Shown piece by piece: positions 3 through 58,402 of a stretch of DNA of 64,000 bases. A model generated the notes under the pieces. The model was not told the DNA's origin. It saw nothing but the letters and a program-made list of their open reading frames with translations, and made no database searches. Position 1 is the first letter of the stretch; each line of letters starts with the position of its first letter. This stretch comes from a virus (taxonomy: Duplodnaviria; Heunggongvirae; Uroviricota; Caudoviricetes): IMG/VR virus record IMGVR_UViG_3300042992_000089; one strand, 5' to 3'. The translations under genes were made by a program, and so were the position numbers.

Positions 3-1688
3 TCTGGTTCATCAGCTACATCTGGTTCATCAGGCACTGGAGGAACTAGTGGATCTAGTGGCACATCAGGTAGCTCTGGTCTTGCTGGTGATAGATATGC
101 TACCTTCTCAACTACACCTTTTACTTTAGGTAATGCAGGTACAATAACAGTAGGAACTGGCTTAGCATACACAGTGGGTCAATCTGTGCTCATAGCAAAT
201 AATCAATTTAATTATCAACATAGCGTAGTTATTTCATATATTTCTGGAACAGGAGCTTTACAATTTGCAGCACCTGATGTATTAGTAGGATCTGGAACAT
301 ATTCTATCTGGTCTGTTAACCTTGTAGGTGCAGCAGGTGGTGATGGTTCTAGTGGAACATCAGGCTCTTCTGGTACCTCTGCTACAAGTGGGTCTTCTGG
401 CTCAAGTGGTAGTTCAGGTACAAGTGCTACTAGTGGATCTAGTGGAACTAATGGAAGCTCAGGAACATCTGCATCTTCAGGTACTTCTGGCTCATCAGGT
501 ACTGATGGTAGTTCTGGAACTGCTGGTACTTCTGGTACCTCTGGCACAGCTGGTTCTAATGGAACATCAGGAACAAATGGTACTGATGGTAGCAATGGTA
601 CATCTGGTACCTCTGGAACAAATGGTTCATCTGGAACTGATGGTTCATCAGGTACTAATGGATCTTCTGGAACAAGTGGAACGTCTGCATCAAGTGGAAC
701 GAGTGGAACAAGTGGTACAAGTGGAACTAATGGAACATCTGGATCGTCTGGTAAAGATGGTAGTACAGGTGCAGCTATTGCTAACTGGTATGGAGAGTTC
801 TCTAGTACACAAACACAACCATTGCTTGGAGTGAATACTCCTACAATATGGACGTTTGACACTACAAGTTTATCTTATGGTATTTCTGTAGTGGCTAGCT
901 CAAGAGTAACAGTTTCACATCCTGGTCAATATGAATTCATCTTCTCAGCACAGGTTAGTAAAACAACATCTCCAATTGCTGAGGTACAGATATGGCCTAG
1001 AATCAATGGCTTTGATGTAGCTAATTCAAATTCATTTATAGAAATACAGCAAACAGAGGTGGAATACATTCCTACTATTGCTTATATATTTAATCTACAA
1101 GCTAATGATTATGTACAGTTTGTCTTTGCATCTGCTGATTCAACAGTTCAACTTGTTGCTAAACCTGCACAAGTTTCTCCTTATGCATCTCCAGCTGCTC
1201 CTTCAATAATATTAACTGCTAAGCAAGTGGGTGTTGCTGTTTCAGGTACATCTGGTACAAGTGGAACAACTGGCACATCTGGTACTTCTGCATCAAGTGG
1301 AACTTCTGGATCTTCTGGAACAAGTGCTAGCTCAGGTACATCAGGTACAGATGGTAGCTCAGGCACTGCAGGTACTAGTGGTAGCACAGGTACATCAGGT
1401 ACTGCAGGTACGTCAGGATCATCTGGAACTTCAGCTAGCTCTGGTAGTGATGGATCATCTGGCACTAGTGGCACTGATGGAAGTTCTGGTACGAGTGGAA
1501 CGAGTGGAACTAGTGGAACTGATGGGTCTTCTGGAACAGCAGGAACAACAGGTACAGCAGGAACAACAGGAACTAGTGGTACTGTAGGTACATCTGGAAC
1601 ATCAACAACAAGTCTTGGTACAAGTGGAGATTCAATCACTATACCTCCTTCAGAAGGAACTACAACTACAACAACCACTGCACCTTAA
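3..1688 (+). CDS. Collagen-like fiber protein, 5' partial. Gly-X-Y tracts (X,Y = S/T/D/A/N) flank a central C1q/BclA-like jelly-roll domain; poly-Thr C-terminal tail.
   Basis: The open frame is unbroken from window position 3; the GTG at 174 in the ORF track is internal. It reads [16 protein letters not shown]... with Gly at every third residue. The central segment IANWYGEF...PGQYEFIFSAQV...NDYVQFVF...QVG has a C1q/TNF-like pattern that also closes the 16891 ORF. The protein ends TTTTTTTAP. Confidence 0.75.
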   Translation, partial: SGSSATSGSSGTGGTSGSSGTSGSSGLAGDRYATFSTTPFTLGNAGTITVGTGLAYTVGQSVLIANNQFNYQHSVVISYISGTGALQFAAPDVLVGSGTYSIWSVNLVGAAGGDGSSGTSGSSGTSATSGSSGSSGSSGTSATSGSSGTNGSSGTSASSGTSGSSGTDGSSGTAGTSGTSGTAGSNGTSGTNGTDGSNGTSGTSGTNGSSGTDGSSGTNGSSGTSGTSASSGTSGTSGTSGTNGTSGSSGKDGSTGAAIANWYGEFSSTQTQPLLGVNTPTIWTFDTTSLSYGISVVASSRVTVSHPGQYEFIFSAQVSKTTSPIAEVQIWPRINGFDVANSNSFIEIQQTEVEYIPTIAYIFNLQANDYVQFVFASADSTVQLVAKPAQVSPYASPAAPSIILTAKQVGVAVSGTSGTSGTTGTSGTSASSGTSGSSGTSASSGTSGTDGSSGTAGTSGSTGTSGTAGTSGSSGTSASSGSDGSSGTSGTDGSSGTSGTSGTSGTDGSSGTAGTTGTAGTTGTSGTVGTSGTSTTSLGTSGDSITIPPSEGTTTTTTTAP

Positions 1689-1712
1689 TAATAAATAAAT
1701 AAAGAAATAAAA

Positions 1713-4547
1713 ATGCCTTATAGTAACATTACAATAACCATTCAGACAGGTCTTACGTTTATTCCTGGACAATATGTCCAAGTGATACATGATGAGAACA
1801 ACTATATGTTTGGTCAAGTTGTATCATATAATTCAGGAACAGGACAATTCATATTTGAACCAGTTAGTTATTTAGGAGCTGGTACATTTACTAGTTGGAC
1901 TGTTGTAACTTCAGCTGCTCCTGGTGAGGATGGAACAAGTGGTACGTCTGGAACTGCTGGATCTAGTGGTTCAACAGGAACCTCAGGTTCTAGTGGAACT
2001 GATGGTAGTTCAGGAACAAGTGGAAGTGCAGGTACTAGTGGCACTGATGGCTCTAGTGGTACATCAGCATCTTCAGGAACAAGTGGATCTTCAGGAACTG
2101 ATGGTTCATCTGGAACATCTGCTACGTCTGGATCTACTGGTACAAGTGGATCGAGTGGATCAAGTGGTTCATCTGGTAGCTCAGGTACTTCTGCTTCTAG
2201 TGGATCTTCTGGCACATCTGGAACAGATGGATCTAGTGGTACATCAGGAACAGATGGCTCAAGTGGAACTGCAGGAACTACTGGTACATCAGGTACGAGT
2301 GGTAGTGATGGTTCTTCTGGTACAAGTGCAACAAGTGGCTCATCTGGTACGTCAGCTTCTAGTGGTTCCTCTGGAACTTCTGGTTCAAGTGGTAGTGCAG
2401 GTACTGCAGGTCTTTCTGGAGACTTATATAAAACAACATCAACTACATCATTAGCAATAGGAACAGGTACAAAGAATCTTACTGTTGGTACAGGTTTATC
2501 TTACACAGTGGGACAGGTTGTAGTTCTTGCTTATGATCTAAGCAATAGCATGGGTGGTGATATTATATCTTATAATTCTGGATCAGGTGCAATGTCTGTA
2601 AACGTAACTGCTACTACTGGTAGTGGTACTTATGCAGCATGGGATGTAAACTTAGGTGGTGCTGCTGGAGGTGATGGATCTTCAGGTACTAGTGGTGCAG
2701 ATGGTATTGATGGTAATCTTGCTATATGGAGATTCTCTACAAACACAGATACAAGCACAGACCCAGGTAGTGGATATTTTAGATTAAACTCTGCAACATG
2801 GGGAGCAAGCGTAACAGCAATTGCTATTGACAATCAATCATACTCTCCAAGCGTAAACTTTGGTACATACCTAGATACATTACAGAACAACTCTATTATA
2901 AAACTTGTATATGTTAGTGATAAGAATACATTCAAGATTTTAAGAATAGATGCTCTTCTTCCTAATCAAACAGGATTTGAAGAATTCACTGTAACACAAT
3001 TAGGATCAGGTGGTACAGATCCTAATGATAATGATCAATTCTATTTTGAATTTAATGGTATAAGTGGATCTTCTGGTACTTCAGGTACGAGTGGAACATC
3101 TGGCACTACAGGTACTAATGGTTCGTCTGGTACTGATGGTTCTTCAGGAACGTCAGGATCAAGTGGAACTTCAGCATCTAGTGGTACGTCAGCTTCCTCT
3201 GGTACATCAGGTACATCAGGCACTGATGGGTCTAGTGGAACATCTGCTTCTAGTGGATCAAGTGGTACTGATGGATCGTCTGGTACTTCTGGTACTGATG
3301 GCTCATCTGGTACAAGTGGATCGTCTGGCACTGATGGATCAAGTGGTACTAGTGGTACTTCTGCTTCTTCTGGAACTAGTGGTTCAAGTGGAACAGATGG
3401 CTCTAGTGGAACAAGTGGAACAACAGGAACAAGTGGAACATCAGGTTCTTCAGGTACTAATGGAAGTTCTGGTACATCAGCTTCAAGTGGTTCTTCTGGT
3501 ACAGATGGTAGTTCTGGAAAGAATGGATCATCTGGAACTAGTGCATCTAGTGGTACAAGTGGTACGAGTGGATCAAGTGGAAGTTCAGGAAGTAGTGGAA
3601 GCTCTGGAACTTCAGGATCTTCTGGTTCTTCTGGTTCTTCAGGCTCTTCTGGAAAGGCTGGTTCATCAGGTACATCTGGAGCCAATGGAGCTACAGGTCC
3701 TCAAGGTCCAACAGGTGGACCTGGCCCAACTGGACCACAAGGAGCAACTGGACCACAAGGTGCAACAGGTGGACCAGGCCCTACTGGTCCTCAAGGTGCA
3801 CAAGGACCACAAGGTGCAACAGGACCACAAGGACCTCAAGGTCCAGGTGGGCCTCCAGGACCAACAGGACCAACAGGACCACAAGGACCTACAGGTGTTG
3901 TTGGTGGATTGAGTCAAGGTGTACAAACATATGGTTCTGTTGTAACAACAACAGCTAATAATGGATGGGCTGGTTATCAAACAACAACAGCTGGTGTATA
4001 TCATCAATTGATGTCAGCTGGTGGTGATTATGGATTGTATTCTAATAGTTATAGCTGGGGACATTATTATAGTGCTGGTAACAATGGTTGGGGTATTCGT
4101 GGAAGCACCACTGTAAACTGGGCTGCTTGTACTACGAATGGTACAATGTATTATACATCAGAGTCTTATGCTACATATAATATGTTTGCTGTATCCTTTG
4201 TACCTACTTCTGATGTTAGACTTAAAGAAAACTTTGCTCCATTAGAAAACTCTCTTGATAAACTTAAAGGCTTACAAGGTGTATCTTATAACAGAATTGA
4301 AGATATTACTAAGAGAAGAGAGATTGGTTTTGTAGCACAAGAGGTTGAGAAAACATTGCCAGAGTTTGTACATTATCATGAAGATACAGATGTATATGGT
4401 ATTGCTTATGATAAGATGACAGCTTTACTTACAGAAGGTTTGAAAGAAGAAGATCAGAAAGTAGATGCTATAGAGGCAAGAGTCTTAACTTTAGAAGCCA
4501 AGATTGCAACATTAGAAACACGTTTAGGTAACTTAGAAAATATATAA
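1713..4547 (+). CDS. Tail fiber / collagen-like protein with a C-terminal intramolecular chaperone (peptidase S74-like) domain
   Basis: It has long GSS/GTS Gly-X-Y tracts and a true GPQ/GPT collagen tract ([25 protein letters not shown]...) at about 3690-3900. The C-terminal 112 aa, [29 protein letters not shown]...[15 protein letters not shown]...[10 protein letters not shown]...[18 protein letters not shown], match the self-cleaving endosialidase/tail-fiber chaperone signature (DxRLKxN ... GxIAQEV ... PE ... LLxEAIKEL ... coiled coil). A repeated 70-aa globular cassette sits at the N-terminus and again around residues 240-330. Confidence 0.8.
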
Positions 4548-33159: not shown

Positions 33160-33367
33160 TGTACTGTCTGCTTAGACACTTTGTTTTGAGATCTTCTGGT
33201 GTGAGTGTCATCACTTTACCTCTGTACTCAACTTCAAAGTTTTCATTCTTTTGAATGCATTCTCTTACCTTGTGATCAATTAGATCAGCGTACTTCTTGT
33301 CATGAAGCTTTAGAATTGTTCTTTTCATATTTGTCTGTTTTTGTTTTCTTGTCATGGCATTTCTCAC
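33065..33367 (-). CDS. Hypothetical protein
   Basis: ORF. Confidence 0.35.
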   Translation of the reverse strand: MRNAMTRKQKQTNMKRTILKLHDKKYADLIDHKVRECIQKNENFEVEYRGKVMTLTPEDLKTKCLSRQYIEKPKYGEEPYHLLSYLWEPTKTTKDEKGTD

Positions 33368-33725
33368 ACAACACCTGTAATCCAGTCACCTCACAAAACA
33401 ATCTATCTACAAATCCTGGTAGATCTTTTGAAGAGTTTAGACTTCCTGCAGGGACAATGTGATCAACGTTTATCTTTCTCTCTATGAACCAGTTTTTACA
33501 TACATTGCATTGATACTCATACTTTTGTCTCTTATTTGTTCCCTTGTACAATCTGCGTGCCTGAAGCTTAGCTTCTGTAATAGGTTTCCAAAATCTAGAC
33601 TTTTGTCTAAGAGCACTACGTATAAAGCTCCAGAATGCTGATTCTGTCATAGTTCCATGACATCTTGGTTTAACAGCCACTTTTCTAGGTATCTTAGAGA
33701 TTCTTTTTGTTGCGTTCTTTTTCAT
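33300..33725 (-). CDS. HNH homing-type endonuclease
   Basis: CNVCKNWF...VDHIVPAGS...LQVLCEKCHDKKT has the HNH motif with paired Cys zinc ligands. Confidence 0.7.
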   Translation of the reverse strand: MKKNATKRISKIPRKVAVKPRCHGTMTESAFWSFIRSALRQKSRFWKPITEAKLQARRLYKGTNKRQKYEYQCNVCKNWFIERKINVDHIVPAGSLNSSKDLPGFVDRLFCEVTGLQVLCEKCHDKKTKTDKYEKNNSKAS

Positions 33726-33770: not shown

Positions 33771-35243
33771 TTAATCAATTTTTACAATTCTCTTAGATAT
33801 TTCTTGTTTAATTTCATCAAGACTCTTAACAATTGTATAAACTTCTACAGCAGACAAAGCAGGTAAGTTGAAATCATACTTCTTAGCTTCTGCAGTGAAT
33901 CCTTGCTTAGCCTTCTCAGCTAAGTTATCTAGCTCACGCACAGCATAAGACTCATCCAACTCAAGAGTGTCAAAGTCTAAGTCATGTAAGATTTCTGTTG
34001 CTTCTTCACGTGGCACAGTCATAATTGGTAAATACTCATAGCATCTACCCTTAGACTGACCAATACCTACCACCTTCATAGGATTGATAAGTACAAGCAC
34101 GCTTGTGTCACCACAACCTACATAATGAATCTCATCACTAGTGAAGTGTAATCCTTCAGCACCACAGTCGTCAGTATTCCAACGACATGATTCCATAGGC
34201 ATATCTACTGGTCTACCAATTCTGATGTCAAATGTTCTTGTGTGAGCATCTGTATATCTATTCTCTGCTCTATTAGGCAAATCGAGATATAGCTCAGTTA
34301 AGTTACCAATCTCTTCACCATGATCTACACGAACAAGGTCTTTGTATATTCCTTGTTCATCACACTCATAACACTGACCACTATCATCATATTCTTCATC
34401 ATATTCAGGAGTTGTTCCTGAACCATCACAATAAGAACATGTAACCATTTCTTCTCTAAACATTGCGTCCATGTGAACCATTTTGTACTCACCATTTTGC
34501 AAGAAGACACTATAGTCATCTGGTTTCTTCTTCCATACAGCTTTCACTTTATTATATGCATTGGACACAAAGTCTACAAGTTCTGTACCTCCATGTAATG
34601 TCACTACGTTTCTCAAAGCTACAAAGAAGCCCTGTTTAGTGATACTAAAGCTATTCTTCTTCAAGAAGTTAAATAACTTATCTGCCACTTCAGCTCTAGG
34701 GTTCAAGCAACACCACATGAAGAATCTATGCAAAGCATTGAATTCATCATTGTCTGTGCCACCATGTCTACCTACCACTTCTAAGAACTCTTCCACTAGT
34801 AATGGAGGTAAGCTTCTGTTGATGCCTTTTAGATACAAAGCATTGTTTTTCATTTCAAATTGCTCAAGGGTAGCTAAATACTCAGCACCTCTTTGAATAG
34901 CTTTAGCTTTCTCATACTCAGCTTCAGCTTTTCTTTTCTCATCTCTAATCTCCTGTGTGCTAACAAGATTAATTAGACAAGCTTCTGTTCTACAGTCTCT
35001 AGCAGCATTGAAATCATCTGCTGTTGCTGGAGATTTAGTAATGATATTACCATCATTCATTACAATAGTCAATGTATCATTAACCATTTTAATGTTTAGA
35101 TAGGGCTTTCCTGAAGGATGATAAGAAGGGGCTACTTGCCCCTCCTCATTATCCAATTCATTAAAAGCCTGCTCAATTTTGTTTTCTACTACCTTTTCAA
35201 TTGTGCGTTCAATAGCACTCTTAAACCATTTTAAGCTTAACAT
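33771..35243 (-). CDS. Hypothetical protein (490 aa) with a Cys cluster (CSYCDGSG...CYECDEQG)
   Basis: This is a long ORF with no recognisable catalytic motifs. Confidence 0.5.
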   Translation of the reverse strand: MLSLKWFKSAIERTIEKVVENKIEQAFNELDNEEGQVAPSYHPSGKPYLNIKMVNDTLTIVMNDGNIITKSPATADDFNAARDCRTEACLINLVSTQEIRDEKRKAEAEYEKAKAIQRGAEYLATLEQFEMKNNALYLKGINRSLPPLLVEEFLEVVGRHGGTDNDEFNALHRFFMWCCLNPRAEVADKLFNFLKKNSFSITKQGFFVALRNVVTLHGGTELVDFVSNAYNKVKAVWKKKPDDYSVFLQNGEYKMVHMDAMFREEMVTCSYCDGSGTTPEYDEEYDDSGQCYECDEQGIYKDLVRVDHGEEIGNLTELYLDLPNRAENRYTDAHTRTFDIRIGRPVDMPMESCRWNTDDCGAEGLHFTSDEIHYVGCGDTSVLVLINPMKVVGIGQSKGRCYEYLPIMTVPREEATEILHDLDFDTLELDESYAVRELDNLAEKAKQGFTAEAKKYDFNLPALSAVEVYTIVKSLDEIKQEISKRIVKID

Positions 35244-35254
35244 GTTTTGCTTTT

Positions 35255-37603
35255 TTAAATTGTTTGTAATTCTTCAATTGTGTCTTGTGTCAATGTCTCC
35301 TCTAAAGGAGCATCTTCTGTTAATATGAGCTTGTAATGCTCTAGGTTTACCTTTTGCTTGTGATACTTAAATAGATCAACAATAGCTGTAATAAAAGGAC
35401 TATCACTATTTCCACTTCTGTATCCCATTCTATCTAATAGTACATTTAAGAATGGTAGCTTAGTAAACACTTCATTAACCTGATTGTAAACTATATATAC
35501 AGGTTGGTCAAACAGGTTATTTTCTTTTGCATGTTCTACAATAAGATTTTTGGTTGTACCATCAGCATAATACATACTGTTATCTCTATGATACTTGTTT
35601 AGTAGTTCTAACTTATCTGCTAGATCATTAGAAATCTCTCTAACAATTTCAATTCTGTTGAATGTTGCTTTCTTATCTTCAAAAAGTCGTTCAATCAAGA
35701 ACTCTGTAGCCATGGTTTTAAATGGTCTGTTTTTACCTTCCATAAATTTATCTATTGTTATCCAGTTATGTAAATCAGCTTTCTGTAAGTTATCTATTGT
35801 AGCTTGGGCAACAATAACAAAGTTTGCTTGTCCATTAAATACTGACCATAGTCTATCTAATTCTTTCTTATCAGACTCTTTACCATAAATGTGTAACTTA
35901 GATGACCTATGGATGTCTTCCATCTTAAATGTTGTAGGAACAAACTTACAATATTGATCAGACATATGTATTTCCATTTTTGTACCCACCTTACCAGAGA
36001 ACTCACCTTTCATTCTTATCTTCTTAGGACCCTTTATAGCTGCAACTGATATCTTCATTCTCTTAGCCTTCTGAGCATCCTTAAATGATTGTGGAATCTC
36101 AATAGCATCTACATCTATAAAGTCTTTAGCATACAGCCCCACTACATATTGAAACTCTTGAATAACTTCTCTCCATTGAGATTTTGGATACATATTAAGT
36201 CCTAATACAGAGTCATAATACTTAGCATAATCTACTTGACCAGTTTTACTTCTAAGTTTAAATGGTGATTTCTTAACAAAATATATGTGTTTATTATCTG
36301 GTAGAATAGTTCTTAGATAGTCTTGTTTACCTTTAGAAAGCTCATTTTCATAAATATATACACCACCAAAGTTATAAGCTGTAAAGTCTGACATTCTTAG
36401 ATACTCGTGATAATAATTTTTCATAGTTTGAAACTTACCAGTAAATCTGTATTTAAACTTGTATTCAGCCAAGATATACTCCTTTGATTTTACAGCAAGT
36501 CTTTCTAAATTCAGCAACTTTATGTTATCTAGTTTAGGCTGTGCTACAGGTGTAGAAGAATGAATTACAAGATCATCTATACAAACTTCATCGTCTGTAC
36601 CCTTGTACCAAGACTTAATATACTTGTTGTTTTTGCTATAGAATTGCATAATAGCTTTGATATCACTTTGTGTAGTGATGGCTTCATTAAACTTTTCCAT
36701 AAATACATTAGCCACTGTAGCTATCTTGTTAAGAATAGTTTCTTTAGCTTCTTGTGTATATCTAATAGCTTCTCTGTTTGGTGTAGGGAATAATCCATCA
36801 CTAAGACTGAATCTCAAAGCCATTTTGATACCTATTCTGCTTATGCCAAGCTTATCCCAATCAATAGGATAACTAACATTGTCTAAACAAAGATGCATGT
36901 CACTATTAGTAGCTAAGCTAGAATATTGGAAATGTTCAGCTCTGTGTATTGTGAAGTCATTGGTAACAGAATAACTACCCATTGGTTCTACATCAAAATA
37001 GACATTCTCAAAATAAGCCAATTGCTCTTTGATTTTATTAACAAAATTGTATCTATCATAGTAGGTTACAGGTACAATCACCTTTACACCATTTGGTTCG
37101 TCTGTTGCCCTTTCGTACAACAAGTCAATACTATTTGTATCTTCTCCTTCGTACATCATGTACTTACGTTCCATACCATCTTTTCTAGCTATAAAGTAGA
37201 AGCTAGAACTGTATGCCAATGGAGCCTTGAAACCAAGACCCATCATACCTAGTTCTGTGTTGCTGTTACGCTTAGTTGACTTACCATACTTACTGATGAT
37301 ATTTACTACATCATCTGCATCTAAGCCAATACCAAAGTCTTCAACAGCAAATTCATATGTATCTGCCTGATTGTTTCTCTTAAATGAAACAATGATAGGC
37401 TTGTCACTTCCAGCTCTTCTGTGACTATCTAGTGCATTGGATGCACATTCTCTGATAGTAGAGCCTATTGAATCTGAATAAAGATTCTTACTTAACATCT
37501 GCATCAGAACCTGAGCAGAATCTAAGTCTAGTGACATTTTCACAGTTTCCTGTGTGGTTCCTTCTTGAAGGATGTGTGATTCTGTTTGTTTTTCGAGTAT
37601 CAT
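35255..37603 (-). CDS. GHKL-family ATPase with an Hsp90-like N-terminal ATP-binding domain
   Basis: RECASNALDSH (N-box, compare Hsp90 ELISNASDALDK), EDFGIGLD (G1, compare DTGIGMT) and GMMGLGFKAPLAYS (G2, compare GQFGVGFYSAFLVA). The protein is 782 aa. Confidence 0.65.
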   Translation of the reverse strand: MILEKQTESHILQEGTTQETVKMSLDLDSAQVLMQMLSKNLYSDSIGSTIRECASNALDSHRRAGSDKPIIVSFKRNNQADTYEFAVEDFGIGLDADDVVNIISKYGKSTKRNSNTELGMMGLGFKAPLAYSSSFYFIARKDGMERKYMMYEGEDTNSIDLLYERATDEPNGVKVIVPVTYYDRYNFVNKIKEQLAYFENVYFDVEPMGSYSVTNDFTIHRAEHFQYSSLATNSDMHLCLDNVSYPIDWDKLGISRIGIKMALRFSLSDGLFPTPNREAIRYTQEAKETILNKIATVANVFMEKFNEAITTQSDIKAIMQFYSKNNKYIKSWYKGTDDEVCIDDLVIHSSTPVAQPKLDNIKLLNLERLAVKSKEYILAEYKFKYRFTGKFQTMKNYYHEYLRMSDFTAYNFGGVYIYENELSKGKQDYLRTILPDNKHIYFVKKSPFKLRSKTGQVDYAKYYDSVLGLNMYPKSQWREVIQEFQYVVGLYAKDFIDVDAIEIPQSFKDAQKAKRMKISVAAIKGPKKIRMKGEFSGKVGTKMEIHMSDQYCKFVPTTFKMEDIHRSSKLHIYGKESDKKELDRLWSVFNGQANFVIVAQATIDNLQKADLHNWITIDKFMEGKNRPFKTMATEFLIERLFEDKKATFNRIEIVREISNDLADKLELLNKYHRDNSMYYADGTTKNLIVEHAKENNLFDQPVYIVYNQVNEVFTKLPFLNVLLDRMGYRSGNSDSPFITAIVDLFKYHKQKVNLEHYKLILTEDAPLEETLTQDTIEELQTI

Positions 37604-37607
37604 GTGT

Positions 37608-37964
37608 CTAGTAGTTTACTGTAATGTTGAATTCTTTGAATATTTCTTTTGCTTCTAGTATTGTTTCTATTGTCTTTTGATCTGTAATGTTATCTCTGTT
37701 TAGTTTAAGAATTCTAGTATCTCTTGGTGTATTTAGAAAGTCTTTCCAAAGATGTTTAATTGTAAACTGTCCTGCTGCTTCACCAAGTTTCTTTACTCTT
37801 TCTTCATGACGTTGTTTACAATATGTAGGAGTAGTATATCTATAATACTGAACTGTACCACCTGCTCCTCTACCAAAATAAATACCAACAGTGAAGTCAT
37901 TACCATTGCTTACTGCTATTAAATCTCCTTTGTGGATGTCTCCACCATGTAATACTGTATACAT
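37608..37964 (-). CDS. Hypothetical protein
   Basis: ORF. Confidence 0.45.
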   Translation of the reverse strand: MYTVLHGGDIHKGDLIAVSNGNDFTVGIYFGRGAGGTVQYYRYTTPTYCKQRHEERVKKLGEAAGQFTIKHLWKDFLNTPRDTRILKLNRDNITDQKTIETILEAKEIFKEFNITVNY

Positions 37965-56044: not shown

Positions 56045-56363
56045 GAAAACTACATACGTAAATACAGAGCTTGAATGGGCAGAAGTACAGCTAAAGTCTT
56101 GGAAAGCATACGTTGATGCTAATCCACTACATGAATTGAAAGATAGGATTGAGTGGAAACCTACAGCTAAAGGAGGAATGTTACCTATGGTCATAGCCTC
56201 TATTGAAGCTCAAGGTAAGTTTGTCCAAGAGACAATGAAAAACTACCTAGCATTGGTAGAAGTGGTAGATAAGTTAAGAAACATGGAAGAAGCTAAGGTG
56301 GAAGTGAGAGGAAAAGGTGAATTATCAGGAGCTGCTGCTGAGTTCTTAGCAAATAGAAAATGA
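56031..56363 (+). CDS. Hypothetical protein immediately upstream of terL (small terminase candidate by position only)
   Basis: The N-terminus is MATIKKTTYV, and its stop overlaps the terL ATG (ATGA). Confidence 0.35.
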   Translation: MATIKKTTYVNTELEWAEVQLKSWKAYVDANPLHELKDRIEWKPTAKGGMLPMVIASIEAQGKFVQETMKNYLALVEVVDKLRNMEEAKVEVRGKGELSGAAAEFLANRK

Positions 56364-58402
56364 TAGAACTACAAAATATAGATTACAAAGACTGGTTTAT
56401 AAATCAGAAGCGTATTCCTGATAAAGACTCTCAGGAGTGTAAGCCATTCTTTGACTTTCACAGAGAGCTATGTTTAAATGGAGCCATGATGGGGGGTGTT
56501 TATATCAACCCCTTTTTGTATTGGCACCTAAACATATGGCATACAGAGGTAGATGTAATAGATGAAAGAGGAAGGATTGCACAGAAATATGCCAATCCTT
56601 TTTTAAGAGATAATGAATGGCTTGTGACAAATGAAATTGACAGAGCTCAACAAGAAAAGAGGGGCTTAGTCATTCTAGGTATTAGACGTTTTGCCAAGTC
56701 AGTTTTAGAAGCATCCTATATTGCATGGGGTGCAACCTTTGATGAAAACAGTCAGAATATCATAGCAGGCTTAAATGCCCCAGATATAAAACTGATTACT
56801 GATAAGATTGACAAAGGATTGAATTTCATTCCTGAGTATTGGAGATGGCAGAGAATTGAGGACAACTGGAAGAACCAAGTGACTCTAGGTATAAAGACCA
56901 AGTCTGGTGAACGTATCCCATTCTCTTCCATTCTAATACGTAACCTTGATGAAGGTAATAATGAAGAGGCCATTGCAGGTACAAAACCACGTAAATTAAT
57001 TATAGATGAAATTGGTAAAGGAAACTTTCTTAGAGGCTTACAGGCTGCTATTCCAGGTTTCACTACACCCTATGGCTGGGGATGTAGCCCCATACTTACT
57101 GGGACTGGTGGGGACATGAAGAAATTCATGGATGCAAAGAGCTTAATGTTTGACGTAGACAACTTTAACTTCCTTACATATAATAATAGTAAAGATGACA
57201 AACGTATACATGGATTGTTCATCTCTCATAAATATAGAATGGAGGCAAAGGATGATTCTACACTAGGAGCATATTTGAATGAACCATCCACCTCAGACTT
57301 ACACAATGTAAAAATGCTTGTAAGTGATGAAGAAAAGGCAACACAGATTACTAATGATAATTTAGAAAGACTTAAGAAAGCTGGAGATAGAATAGCCTAT
57401 CTAAAAGAAAAGATGTACTATCCTCAGGAAGTGGATGACATTTTCTTAAATGAGGATACTAATATATTTGATATTGACAGTGCTAAGAGACAGAAGTTTA
57501 GATTGTTGCAACAAGAAAGAACAGGAACTCCTGTTATCTTGTTTAATGATGGAGAGAAGATAGCTCATGAGTTTACAGATAAATTACCCATCTCTAACTT
57601 CCCTCTAAAAAACTCAGACCTAAAAGAAGCACCTGTTGTTATATATGAATTCCCTGTGGATAATCCTCCTTATGGATTGTATGTAGCAGGAGTCGATCCA
57701 TATAGACAAGGTAAGTCTGCATATTCAAGTTCACTTGGATCTGTATACATATATAAAAGGATGCATGAAATTTCAGGTGAGAAGTATCAAGATATGTTCG
57801 TAGCTTCGTATTGTGCAAGACCTGATAAGAAAGAAACTTGGGAAGAACAAGCTAGACTTCTTATTAAATACTATAACGCTAGAACTTTGTGTGAGAATGA
57901 TGATATATCATTTATTGAATATATGAAGAGTAAAGGAGATGCACACTACTTAGAGAAACAACCTGAATGGCTTAAAGAGATTGTTCCTAATACCACTGTA
58001 AAAAGAGATTATGGAATTCATCGTTCAAGTCAGAAGATAATTGACTATCTTCACACCTGTTTAAAGAAGTATATGGAAGCTCCAATCTTTGTAGAGAAGA
58101 ATGACGCAGGTGAAGTGATTAGAGAAGTCTTGGGTGTGAGTAAGATATTTGATCCTGTATTGCTTGAAGAGATTATTCAATACAATGATCAAGGTAACTT
58201 TGATAGAATTATTGCTGCAGAGTTAGCAATAGCACAAGCATTAAAGATGGACCCAATAATGGGTAAGATAGGTGGTACATCAGATGAGAGAGTAGCTTCT
58301 ATGTTCAATAAGAAAAGAGGCAATATACTTTTCACTGAAGCTAGGAACAACATGTTTGGACAATCAAGAAATAAATATAAACGAAATAAATTGTTTTCAT
58401 AA
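56360..58402 (+). CDS. terL: Terminase large subunit
   Basis: GLVILGIRRFAKS is a deviant Walker A, PRKLIIDEIG is Walker B, and the C-terminal half has the terminase nuclease layout. Its size (680 aa) and position before the portal also fit. Confidence 0.8.
   Translation: MIELQNIDYKDWFINQKRIPDKDSQECKPFFDFHRELCLNGAMMGGVYINPFLYWHLNIWHTEVDVIDERGRIAQKYANPFLRDNEWLVTNEIDRAQQEKRGLVILGIRRFAKSVLEASYIAWGATFDENSQNIIAGLNAPDIKLITDKIDKGLNFIPEYWRWQRIEDNWKNQVTLGIKTKSGERIPFSSILIRNLDEGNNEEAIAGTKPRKLIIDEIGKGNFLRGLQAAIPGFTTPYGWGCSPILTGTGGDMKKFMDAKSLMFDVDNFNFLTYNNSKDDKRIHGLFISHKYRMEAKDDSTLGAYLNEPSTSDLHNVKMLVSDEEKATQITNDNLERLKKAGDRIAYLKEKMYYPQEVDDIFLNEDTNIFDIDSAKRQKFRLLQQERTGTPVILFNDGEKIAHEFTDKLPISNFPLKNSDLKEAPVVIYEFPVDNPPYGLYVAGVDPYRQGKSAYSSSLGSVYIYKRMHEISGEKYQDMFVASYCARPDKKETWEEQARLLIKYYNARTLCENDDISFIEYMKSKGDAHYLEKQPEWLKEIVPNTTVKRDYGIHRSSQKIIDYLHTCLKKYMEAPIFVEKNDAGEVIREVLGVSKIFDPVLLEEIIQYNDQGNFDRIIAAELAIAQALKMDPIMGKIGGTSDERVASMFNKKRGNILFTEARNNMFGQSRNKYKRNKLFS

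Follow-up and report, generated by a model that had tools for sequence, protein, structure and literature searches.

A diverged rIIA homolog with an Hsp90-like ATPase head, and its rIIB partner, in an uncultured crAss-related phage

The 64,000-nucleotide stretch of DNA from IMG/VR virus record IMGVR_UViG_3300042992_000089 (a member of the Caudoviricetes; the whole stretch is hereafter the window) carries on its minus strand a 782-residue open reading frame (ORF) that a first-pass annotation had read as a phage-encoded ATPase of the Hsp90-like GHKL type. By its sequence this locus is a new, diverged rIIA of a known family, and the gene that follows it is a homolog of rIIB. We consider it likely that the gene forms one half, rIIA, of a counter-defence module rIIA-rIIB in a crAss-related phage and that its product works as an ATP clamp of the Hsp90/GHL type. 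The ATP site is intact, the protein is modelled with the two-domain head of GHL ATPases, and RIIB is always linked to it in the lineage.

The rIIA gene and its ATP site

The gene and the parts of its product are laid out as follows.

35255-37603, minus strand: rIIA homolog of 782 residues, stop codon included (ATG-start ORF; phrog_612, BLASTP and BFVD structural matches)
37064-37549, minus strand: GHKL (Bergerat-fold) ATPase domain, about residues 19-180
37427-37450, minus strand: N box ECASNALD, translation checked
37319-37339, minus strand: G1 box DFGIGLD, translation checked
37223-37249, minus strand: G2 box/ATP lid GMMGLGFKA, translation checked
36584-37063, minus strand: second domain, about residues 181-340, transducer/middle-domain-like, conserved with T-even RIIA
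36770-36775, minus strand: invariant R277-E278 in the second domain
35258-36583, minus strand: C-terminal lineage-specific region, residues 341-782, mixed alpha/beta and then helical

When scanned against PHROGs, the whole protein matches phrog_612, 'RIIA lysis inhibitor', with E=2.3e-56. Because T2 RIIA matches this profile over its entire length at 2.6e-250, phrog_612 can be taken as the T-even family. BLASTP aligns the window protein with T2 RIIA (E=3e-19), colinearly from residue 1 to ~336, and with the 'rIIA-like protein' of Rhodococcus phage Dorin (2e-42). A hidden Markov model built from 88 relatives of 27-54% identity to the window RIIA aligns T2 RIIA at 1-190 and 269-354 only, and Dorin RIIA at 8-330. 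The phrog_612 alignment itself runs from residue 1 to 735 (profile positions 1-711), but we rejected homology over the full length because residues 1-337 alone outscore the whole protein (3.3e-58 and 199.5 bits, versus 193.4 bits) and residues 338-782 alone match no RIIA profile in PHROGs. At the sequence level, homology to characterised RIIA is thus limited to the first ~340 residues. In this part the GHKL head and second domain of T4/T2 RIIA are colinear with those of the window protein and share the N-box, G1, G2 and 'P-x-R-E' motifs, and the overall lengths are comparable (725 versus 782 residues). Identity in the conserved part is nevertheless only 22%, the C-terminal ~440 residues of the window protein have no detectable sequence similarity to T4/T2 RIIA, and the window comes from a crAss-related phage, not from a T4-like myovirus.

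The family is widespread. A tblastn search of 50,697 phage records found a homolog in 2,643 of them (5.2%), mostly annotated as rIIA and including T2 and many T4-like phages, so the earlier statement that GHKL ATPases are rare in phages does not hold. The best identity in that search was just 32.6%, again to the Dorin 'rIIA-like protein', and the family comprises 14,383 cluster representatives (50% identity, E<=1e-3). A prevalence of ~5% has been published for rIIA-rIIB in phages (PMC13434031); it was also already known or annotated that RIIA is a GHKL protein, that rIIA and rIIB form an operon and that the pair is present in crAss-like phages.

The 782-residue ORF and its N, G1 and G2 Bergerat motifs are all present exactly as the first-pass annotation had quoted them. 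Across the 88 relatives, E52, N56, D59, D89, G119, G122, G124, G172, Y245, R277 and E278 are invariant and G91, G93 and K126 nearly so. The first seven of the invariant residues belong to the Bergerat-fold ATP site, and among the conserved set are the base used in catalysis, the Asn that binds Mg, the Asp that binds adenine and the lid glycines. Since the ATP-site residues are invariant in all 88 relatives, the motifs are not a product of chance and are under selection; on this evidence the window RIIA is very probably an active ATPase. Pfam HATPase_c_3 (3.3e-5) and HATPase_c (~3e-5) match residues ~46-148 with scores just under their gathering cut-offs, and T2 RIIA matches HATPase_c_3 equally weakly. 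Neither the window RIIA nor RIIB contains a hydrophobic segment of transmembrane length, the maximum 19-residue Kyte-Doolittle average being 1.03 and 1.19, respectively.

Relation of the RIIA fold to Hsp90

Sequence profiles do not single out Hsp90. In NCBIfam the window RIIA matches Topo VI-B (6.8e-8), the HSP90 family (9.2e-7) and sacsin (2.5e-6), all far under the curated cut-offs (31.5 versus 274 bits for Topo VI-B and 27.7 versus 455 bits for HSP90). Equally weak matches to HATPase_c_3, the HSP90 family and sacsin recur with T2 RIIA, the canonical protein, and are thus a trait of the RIIA family. Searched as a single sequence against the PDB, the window RIIA finds Topo VI-B (0.012) and MORC2 (0.046). 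The 88-sequence profile likewise places Topo VI-B first (7.9e-10), though over the motif core only (positions 49-132), followed by Hsp83, TRAP1 and HtpG over a longer span (~27-183; 2e-6 to 1e-3) and then by MORC2 (3.4e-3); MutL and GyrB are absent among the best 60 of the 79 PDB chains that this profile matched at E<=1.

For structural comparison we used an AlphaFold model built on the diverse 88-sequence alignment (pLDDT 88.9, pTM 0.68); a model built from 48 close homologs (79-94% identity) reached a pLDDT of 47.5 and was discarded. With Foldseek, the best 50 PDB matches of the model are exclusively Hsp90-family chains (TRAP1, Hsp90 alpha/beta, GRP94, Hsc82 and HtpG; E ~7e-12 to 8e-10). The alignments extend into the middle domain, and the N-terminal-middle domain fragments of TRAP1, 4ivg and 5hph, align with TMt values of 0.40-0.41. 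The model thus robustly predicts for RIIA the two-domain head found in dimerising GHL ATPases, in which a transducer/middle-like domain follows the GHKL domain. Equally robust, for the predicted fold, is the placement of Hsp90 as its nearest solved neighbour; each test ranked MutL and GyrB lower. The first-pass annotation had placed the motifs closest to Hsp90/HtpG, and had called for fold and profile searches. Its ranking over MutL and GyrB stands in all tests and Foldseek bears out the Hsp90 fold, whereas sequence profiles put Topo VI-B ahead of Hsp90, and the PHROGs profile assigns the protein to the RIIA family and not to a topoisomerase or MutL family.

The likeness to Hsp90 has clear bounds. 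Identity to TRAP1, HtpG, GRP94 and Hsp90 alpha/beta is 10-13%, the C-terminal half is unrelated, and the C-terminal dimerisation domain of Hsp90 was looked for in the window RIIA and not found. Similarity to the Hsp90 middle domain is undetectable by sequence, and a profile of the domain that follows the GHKL domain matched nothing in the PDB. The invariant 'P-x-R-E' loop (R277-E278) may correspond to the 'SRE' motif of the catalytic loop in the Hsp90 middle domain, which it resembles.

The first-pass annotation had found the long C-terminal region to resemble nothing recognisable, and at the sequence level this is true of residues 338-782, which also match no solved structure. Among predicted viral structures (BFVD), the best match of the window RIIA is an uncharacterised protein of Virus NIOZ-UU157 (38% identity, 2e-74), followed at 1e-29 to 1e-25 by the RIIA proteins of KVP40, Enterobacter PF-CE2, Klebsiella Marfa and Aeromonas 44RR2.8t, the RB43 fusion and many others. 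A protein of crAss-like phage cr116_1 labelled 'protector from prophage-induced early lysis', which is also a name of T4 RIIA, matches at 1.4e-15 over 608 columns. The alignments to RIIA proteins span ~800 columns and suggest that the overall RIIA architecture is shared despite sequence divergence; they are suggestive and no stronger, because the TM-scores of these predicted structures are low (0.33-0.46). In the literature the C-terminal region of RIIA has been called 'highly variable'.

The RIIB partner and a probable role in counter-defence

Directly after rIIA lies the second gene of the module.

33771-35243, minus strand: rIIB homolog of 490 residues, beginning 11 nucleotides past the rIIA stop (PHROGs, and BLASTP against T2 RIIB)
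34605-34703, minus strand: conserved RIIB block, residues 181-213
34014-34268, minus strand: conserved RIIB block, residues 326-410
34362-34439, minus strand: Cys4 zinc-ribbon-like insert, RIIB residues 269-294, CSYCDGSG...CYECDEQG

The window RIIB matches three PHROGs profiles, all labelled 'RIIB': phrog_609 (1.4e-15), phrog_11221 (1.1e-7) and phrog_36818 (4.9e-7). BLASTP against T2 RIIB yields a pair of colinear blocks (2e-6 and 5e-5), which include the RIIB C-terminal core and are separated by an insert of ~115 residues. The operon position is the same as well: in T2 the 725-residue rIIA is followed by an 11-nucleotide gap and rIIB, and the window matches this in both gene order and gap length. 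The proteins differ in length, the T4/T2 RIIB having 312 residues and the window RIIB 490, with the insert bearing a conserved CxxC...CxxC. They differ also at the N-terminus, where T2 RIIB gives a helix-turn-helix signal in Pfam and the window RIIB gives none. A tblastn search of the phage records with the window RIIB, which is too diverged, returned no match. Among 55 RIIB homologs of the lineage, C269, C272, C291 and C294 are 87-93% conserved and the spacer is variable; because the four cysteines are kept while the residues between them vary, the insert is probably a zinc ribbon. The insert is also reminiscent of the DnaJ CxxCxGxG motif.

We surveyed 80 related IMG/VR contigs (43-86% identity, from genomes of ~105-118 kb) and found rIIB directly after rIIA in 76 of 76 informative loci; the remaining 4 of the 80 end at contig edges. 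The profile phrog_609 acts as one of an RIIA-RIIB fusion, T2 RIIA aligning at 19-311 and T2 RIIB at 751-1049. Natural RIIA-RIIB fusions of ~1,050 residues exist, for example Q56C47 of Escherichia phage RB43. Such fusions are evidence of the Rosetta-stone type that the two proteins work as one physical unit.

In T4, MM02, EdH4, SUSP1 and N4, rIIA and rIIB are dispensable on ordinary hosts and required on hosts carrying lambda RexAB, which aborts infection by depolarising the membrane; this requirement holds for rII modules of less than 40% identity from five phage genera (PMC11879866). The requirement of rII in the face of RexAB was also seen in a transposon screen (10.1101/2025.11.20.689424), and bacterial CARD/gasdermin systems detect RIIB itself (PMC10312443). 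The literature that we searched yielded no structural or mechanistic (biochemical) study of RIIA. By analogy with T4, T6, N4, SUSP1 and others, RIIA and RIIB of the window phage would act jointly and early in infection as a conditionally required counter-defence, and would stop abortive infection of the Rex type, that is, depolarisation of the membrane, from killing the infected cell. The fold suggests that ATP binding would close the G2 lid and drive clamping, probably with dimerisation, and that the R277/E278 loop of the second domain would complete the active site and sense the gamma-phosphate. Target binding and specificity may reside in the fast-evolving C-terminal ~440 residues and in RIIB, as homology to the better-known modules would have it.

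A bolder version of this proposal holds that the whole RIIA family is a phage-borne Hsp90 paralog, made up of an N-domain, a middle-like domain whose invariant Arg-Glu loop is catalytic and a C-terminal specificity module that evolves rapidly, and that it acts with RIIB as an ATP-driven clamp. In this abundant crAss-related lineage of environmental phages it would neutralise an abortive-infection system other than Rex, and the zinc-ribbon RIIB and the lineage-specific C-terminal half would define a new specificity class. We regard this version as possible but tentative.

Of the roles that the first-pass annotation had put forward, the one in anti-defence is favoured, whereas a MORC-like DNA clamp has no family match and a chaperone for fibre or capsid assembly has no chaperone evidence and scores below thresholds. 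More broadly, a GHKL clamp of the Topo VI-B, MORC or MutL type could, as part of the replication module, alter the topology of phage DNA, compact it or repair it, a role that we judge unlikely. Topo VI-B, MORC and MutL rank structurally below Hsp90, and the window RIIA lacks a DNA-cleavage partner or domain and CW or coiled-coil inserts. It shows no family-level match to MutL or MORC and none of their C-terminal modules (MutL endonuclease/dimerisation; MORC CW/coiled coil), and its Topo VI-B score of 31.5 bits falls far under the curated threshold of 274. Neither in the protein nor in the neighbouring genes (rIIB, HNH, UDG-like, DUF932 and primase; Pfam and PHROGs) is there a Top6A/Toprim subunit, nor do they offer a GyrA-like or MutL endonuclease domain or partner. 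The window RIIB has no helix-turn-helix match in Pfam that would point to DNA, and the genetics of the family indicate a role that depends on defence and is not essential for replication.

That the main role of the module is lysis timing or the handling of superinfection, and not counter-defence, we hold to be quite improbable. The PHROG and GenBank labels 'RIIA lysis inhibitor' speak for it, as does the rapid lysis of E. coli B by T4 rII mutants, but the label derives from an old plaque phenotype, the module proved conditionally necessary solely against RexAB in recent functional screens, and no lysis genes adjoin it (Pfam, PHROGs). Least probable of all is genuine chaperone activity of the Hsp90 type, by which RIIA would fold or assemble structural proteins of the phage (fibres or capsid, for example), even though Hsp90 members are the best structural neighbours of RIIA and some phage homologs are labelled 'HSP90 family' in databases.

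Introns in related genes, genomic setting and meaning

In two related contigs, L040 and L030, rIIA is split within the codons of the G2 box (GMMG|LGFKA). The insert in L040 is 301 nucleotides long (L040:632-932), has no ORF and matches the group I intron family RF00028 at 622-921 (63.6 bits versus a gathering score of 50; E=5.8e-16). Its excision restores an ORF of 783 residues; the exon ends in U and the intron in G. A default Rfam gathering scan of the entire loci missed it. The insert in L030 (992 nucleotides, L030:3367-4358) has identical junctions and contains an ORF that matches LAGLIDADG_1 and LAGLIDADG_3, from which we take this intron to encode a LAGLIDADG homing endonuclease. An intein was considered for both contigs and rejected, exon 1 being followed by a stop codon and a frame shift. 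The window rIIA has no intron at the equivalent site (codons 122/123, ~37235-37240). Among the 150 best cluster representatives, about 42 begin within query residues 114-173, usually at Met144, Met149 or Met150 (P0151-P0270), and because such late starts fit gene callers that see the 3' exon alone, the intron may be common in the lineage. We met no earlier report of an rIIA intron, though no literature search was aimed at rIIA introns.

Other features of the window that bear on the setting of the module are these.

37608-37964, minus strand: ORF of 118 residues ending 4 nucleotides upstream of rIIA, a possible accessory gene of the module
33300-33725, minus strand: HNH endonuclease, 45 nucleotides downstream of rIIB (phrog_1985 4.6e-23, and Pfam HNH)
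56360-58402: terminase gene, used for comparison with the closest terminases

The 118-residue ORF, detected upstream of rIIA in 40 of the 80 related loci, has no match in Pfam, PHROGs, NCBIfam or PADLOC, and PADLOC likewise has none for RIIA or RIIB. In Acinetobacter phage 133 a small CARD-only anti-gasdermin protein adjoins rIIAB (PMC10312443), and small ORFs beside rII may for this reason be anti-defence genes. The first-pass annotation had set rIIA beside an HNH endonuclease; the gene is indeed nearby, but rIIB stands between the two, directly downstream of rIIA. The HNH gene probably lies outside the rIIA-rIIB module. It is found downstream of rIIB in 67 of the 80 related loci, an unusually stable position for a class of gene often deemed mobile.

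The placement of the gene in a replication module proved correct, the rIIA-rIIB pair lying inside a long minus-strand block for replication, recombination and nucleotide metabolism. The block holds a DnaB-like helicase, an SNF2-type helicase, a Sak4-like ATPase, a primase, DUF932, a UDG-like gene, the 118-residue ORF and rIIA, and then rIIB, HNH, a PD-(D/E)XK exonuclease-like gene, ribonucleotide reductase and a UvsX-like recombinase, with the DNA polymerase farther along the same strand. The gaps between the genes of the module are tiny. Promoter and terminator scans around it gave matches at chance level, and scanning the window with Rfam and for tRNAs produced no hit. Both gene leaders (35244-35254 and 37604-37607) are A-rich and lack a Shine-Dalgarno sequence, which is typical of Bacteroidota. 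A marginal tRNA-like Rfam match lies between rIIB and HNH in L040 (L040:4489-4560; 30 bits versus a gathering score of 29), and at this position the window has 45 nucleotides and no tRNA.

By its sequence affinities the window belongs to an uncultured phage of ~105-120 kb related to the crAss-like phages. Its terminase is closest to those of Leptolyngbya phage Lbo-JY46 (39.8%), Cellulophaga phi17:2 and phi4:1 (32%) and gut crAss-like phages (27%), with Flavobacterium phages also among the closest, and a megablast of 24 kb of the window against sequenced phages gave no match and hence no close DNA relative. The host is probably one of the Bacteroidota, or possibly a cyanobacterium. On the plus strand, at 174-4547, lie two large tail-fibre genes that match collagen-like repeats, in a stretch with a G+C content of 42-45% against ~35% elsewhere in the window.

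The result is chiefly a correction, in that a supposedly rare Hsp90-like phage ATPase is rIIA and its unannotated neighbour is rIIB. Two large hypothetical genes of an uncultured crAss-related lineage thereby gain names and a probable role in counter-defence. Some 70 years after Benzer, a confident model in which Hsp90 is the nearest neighbour, together with the invariant E52, N56, D89, R277 and E278, makes an ATP-clamp mechanism testable, and this applies to the whole RIIA family and not to this locus alone.
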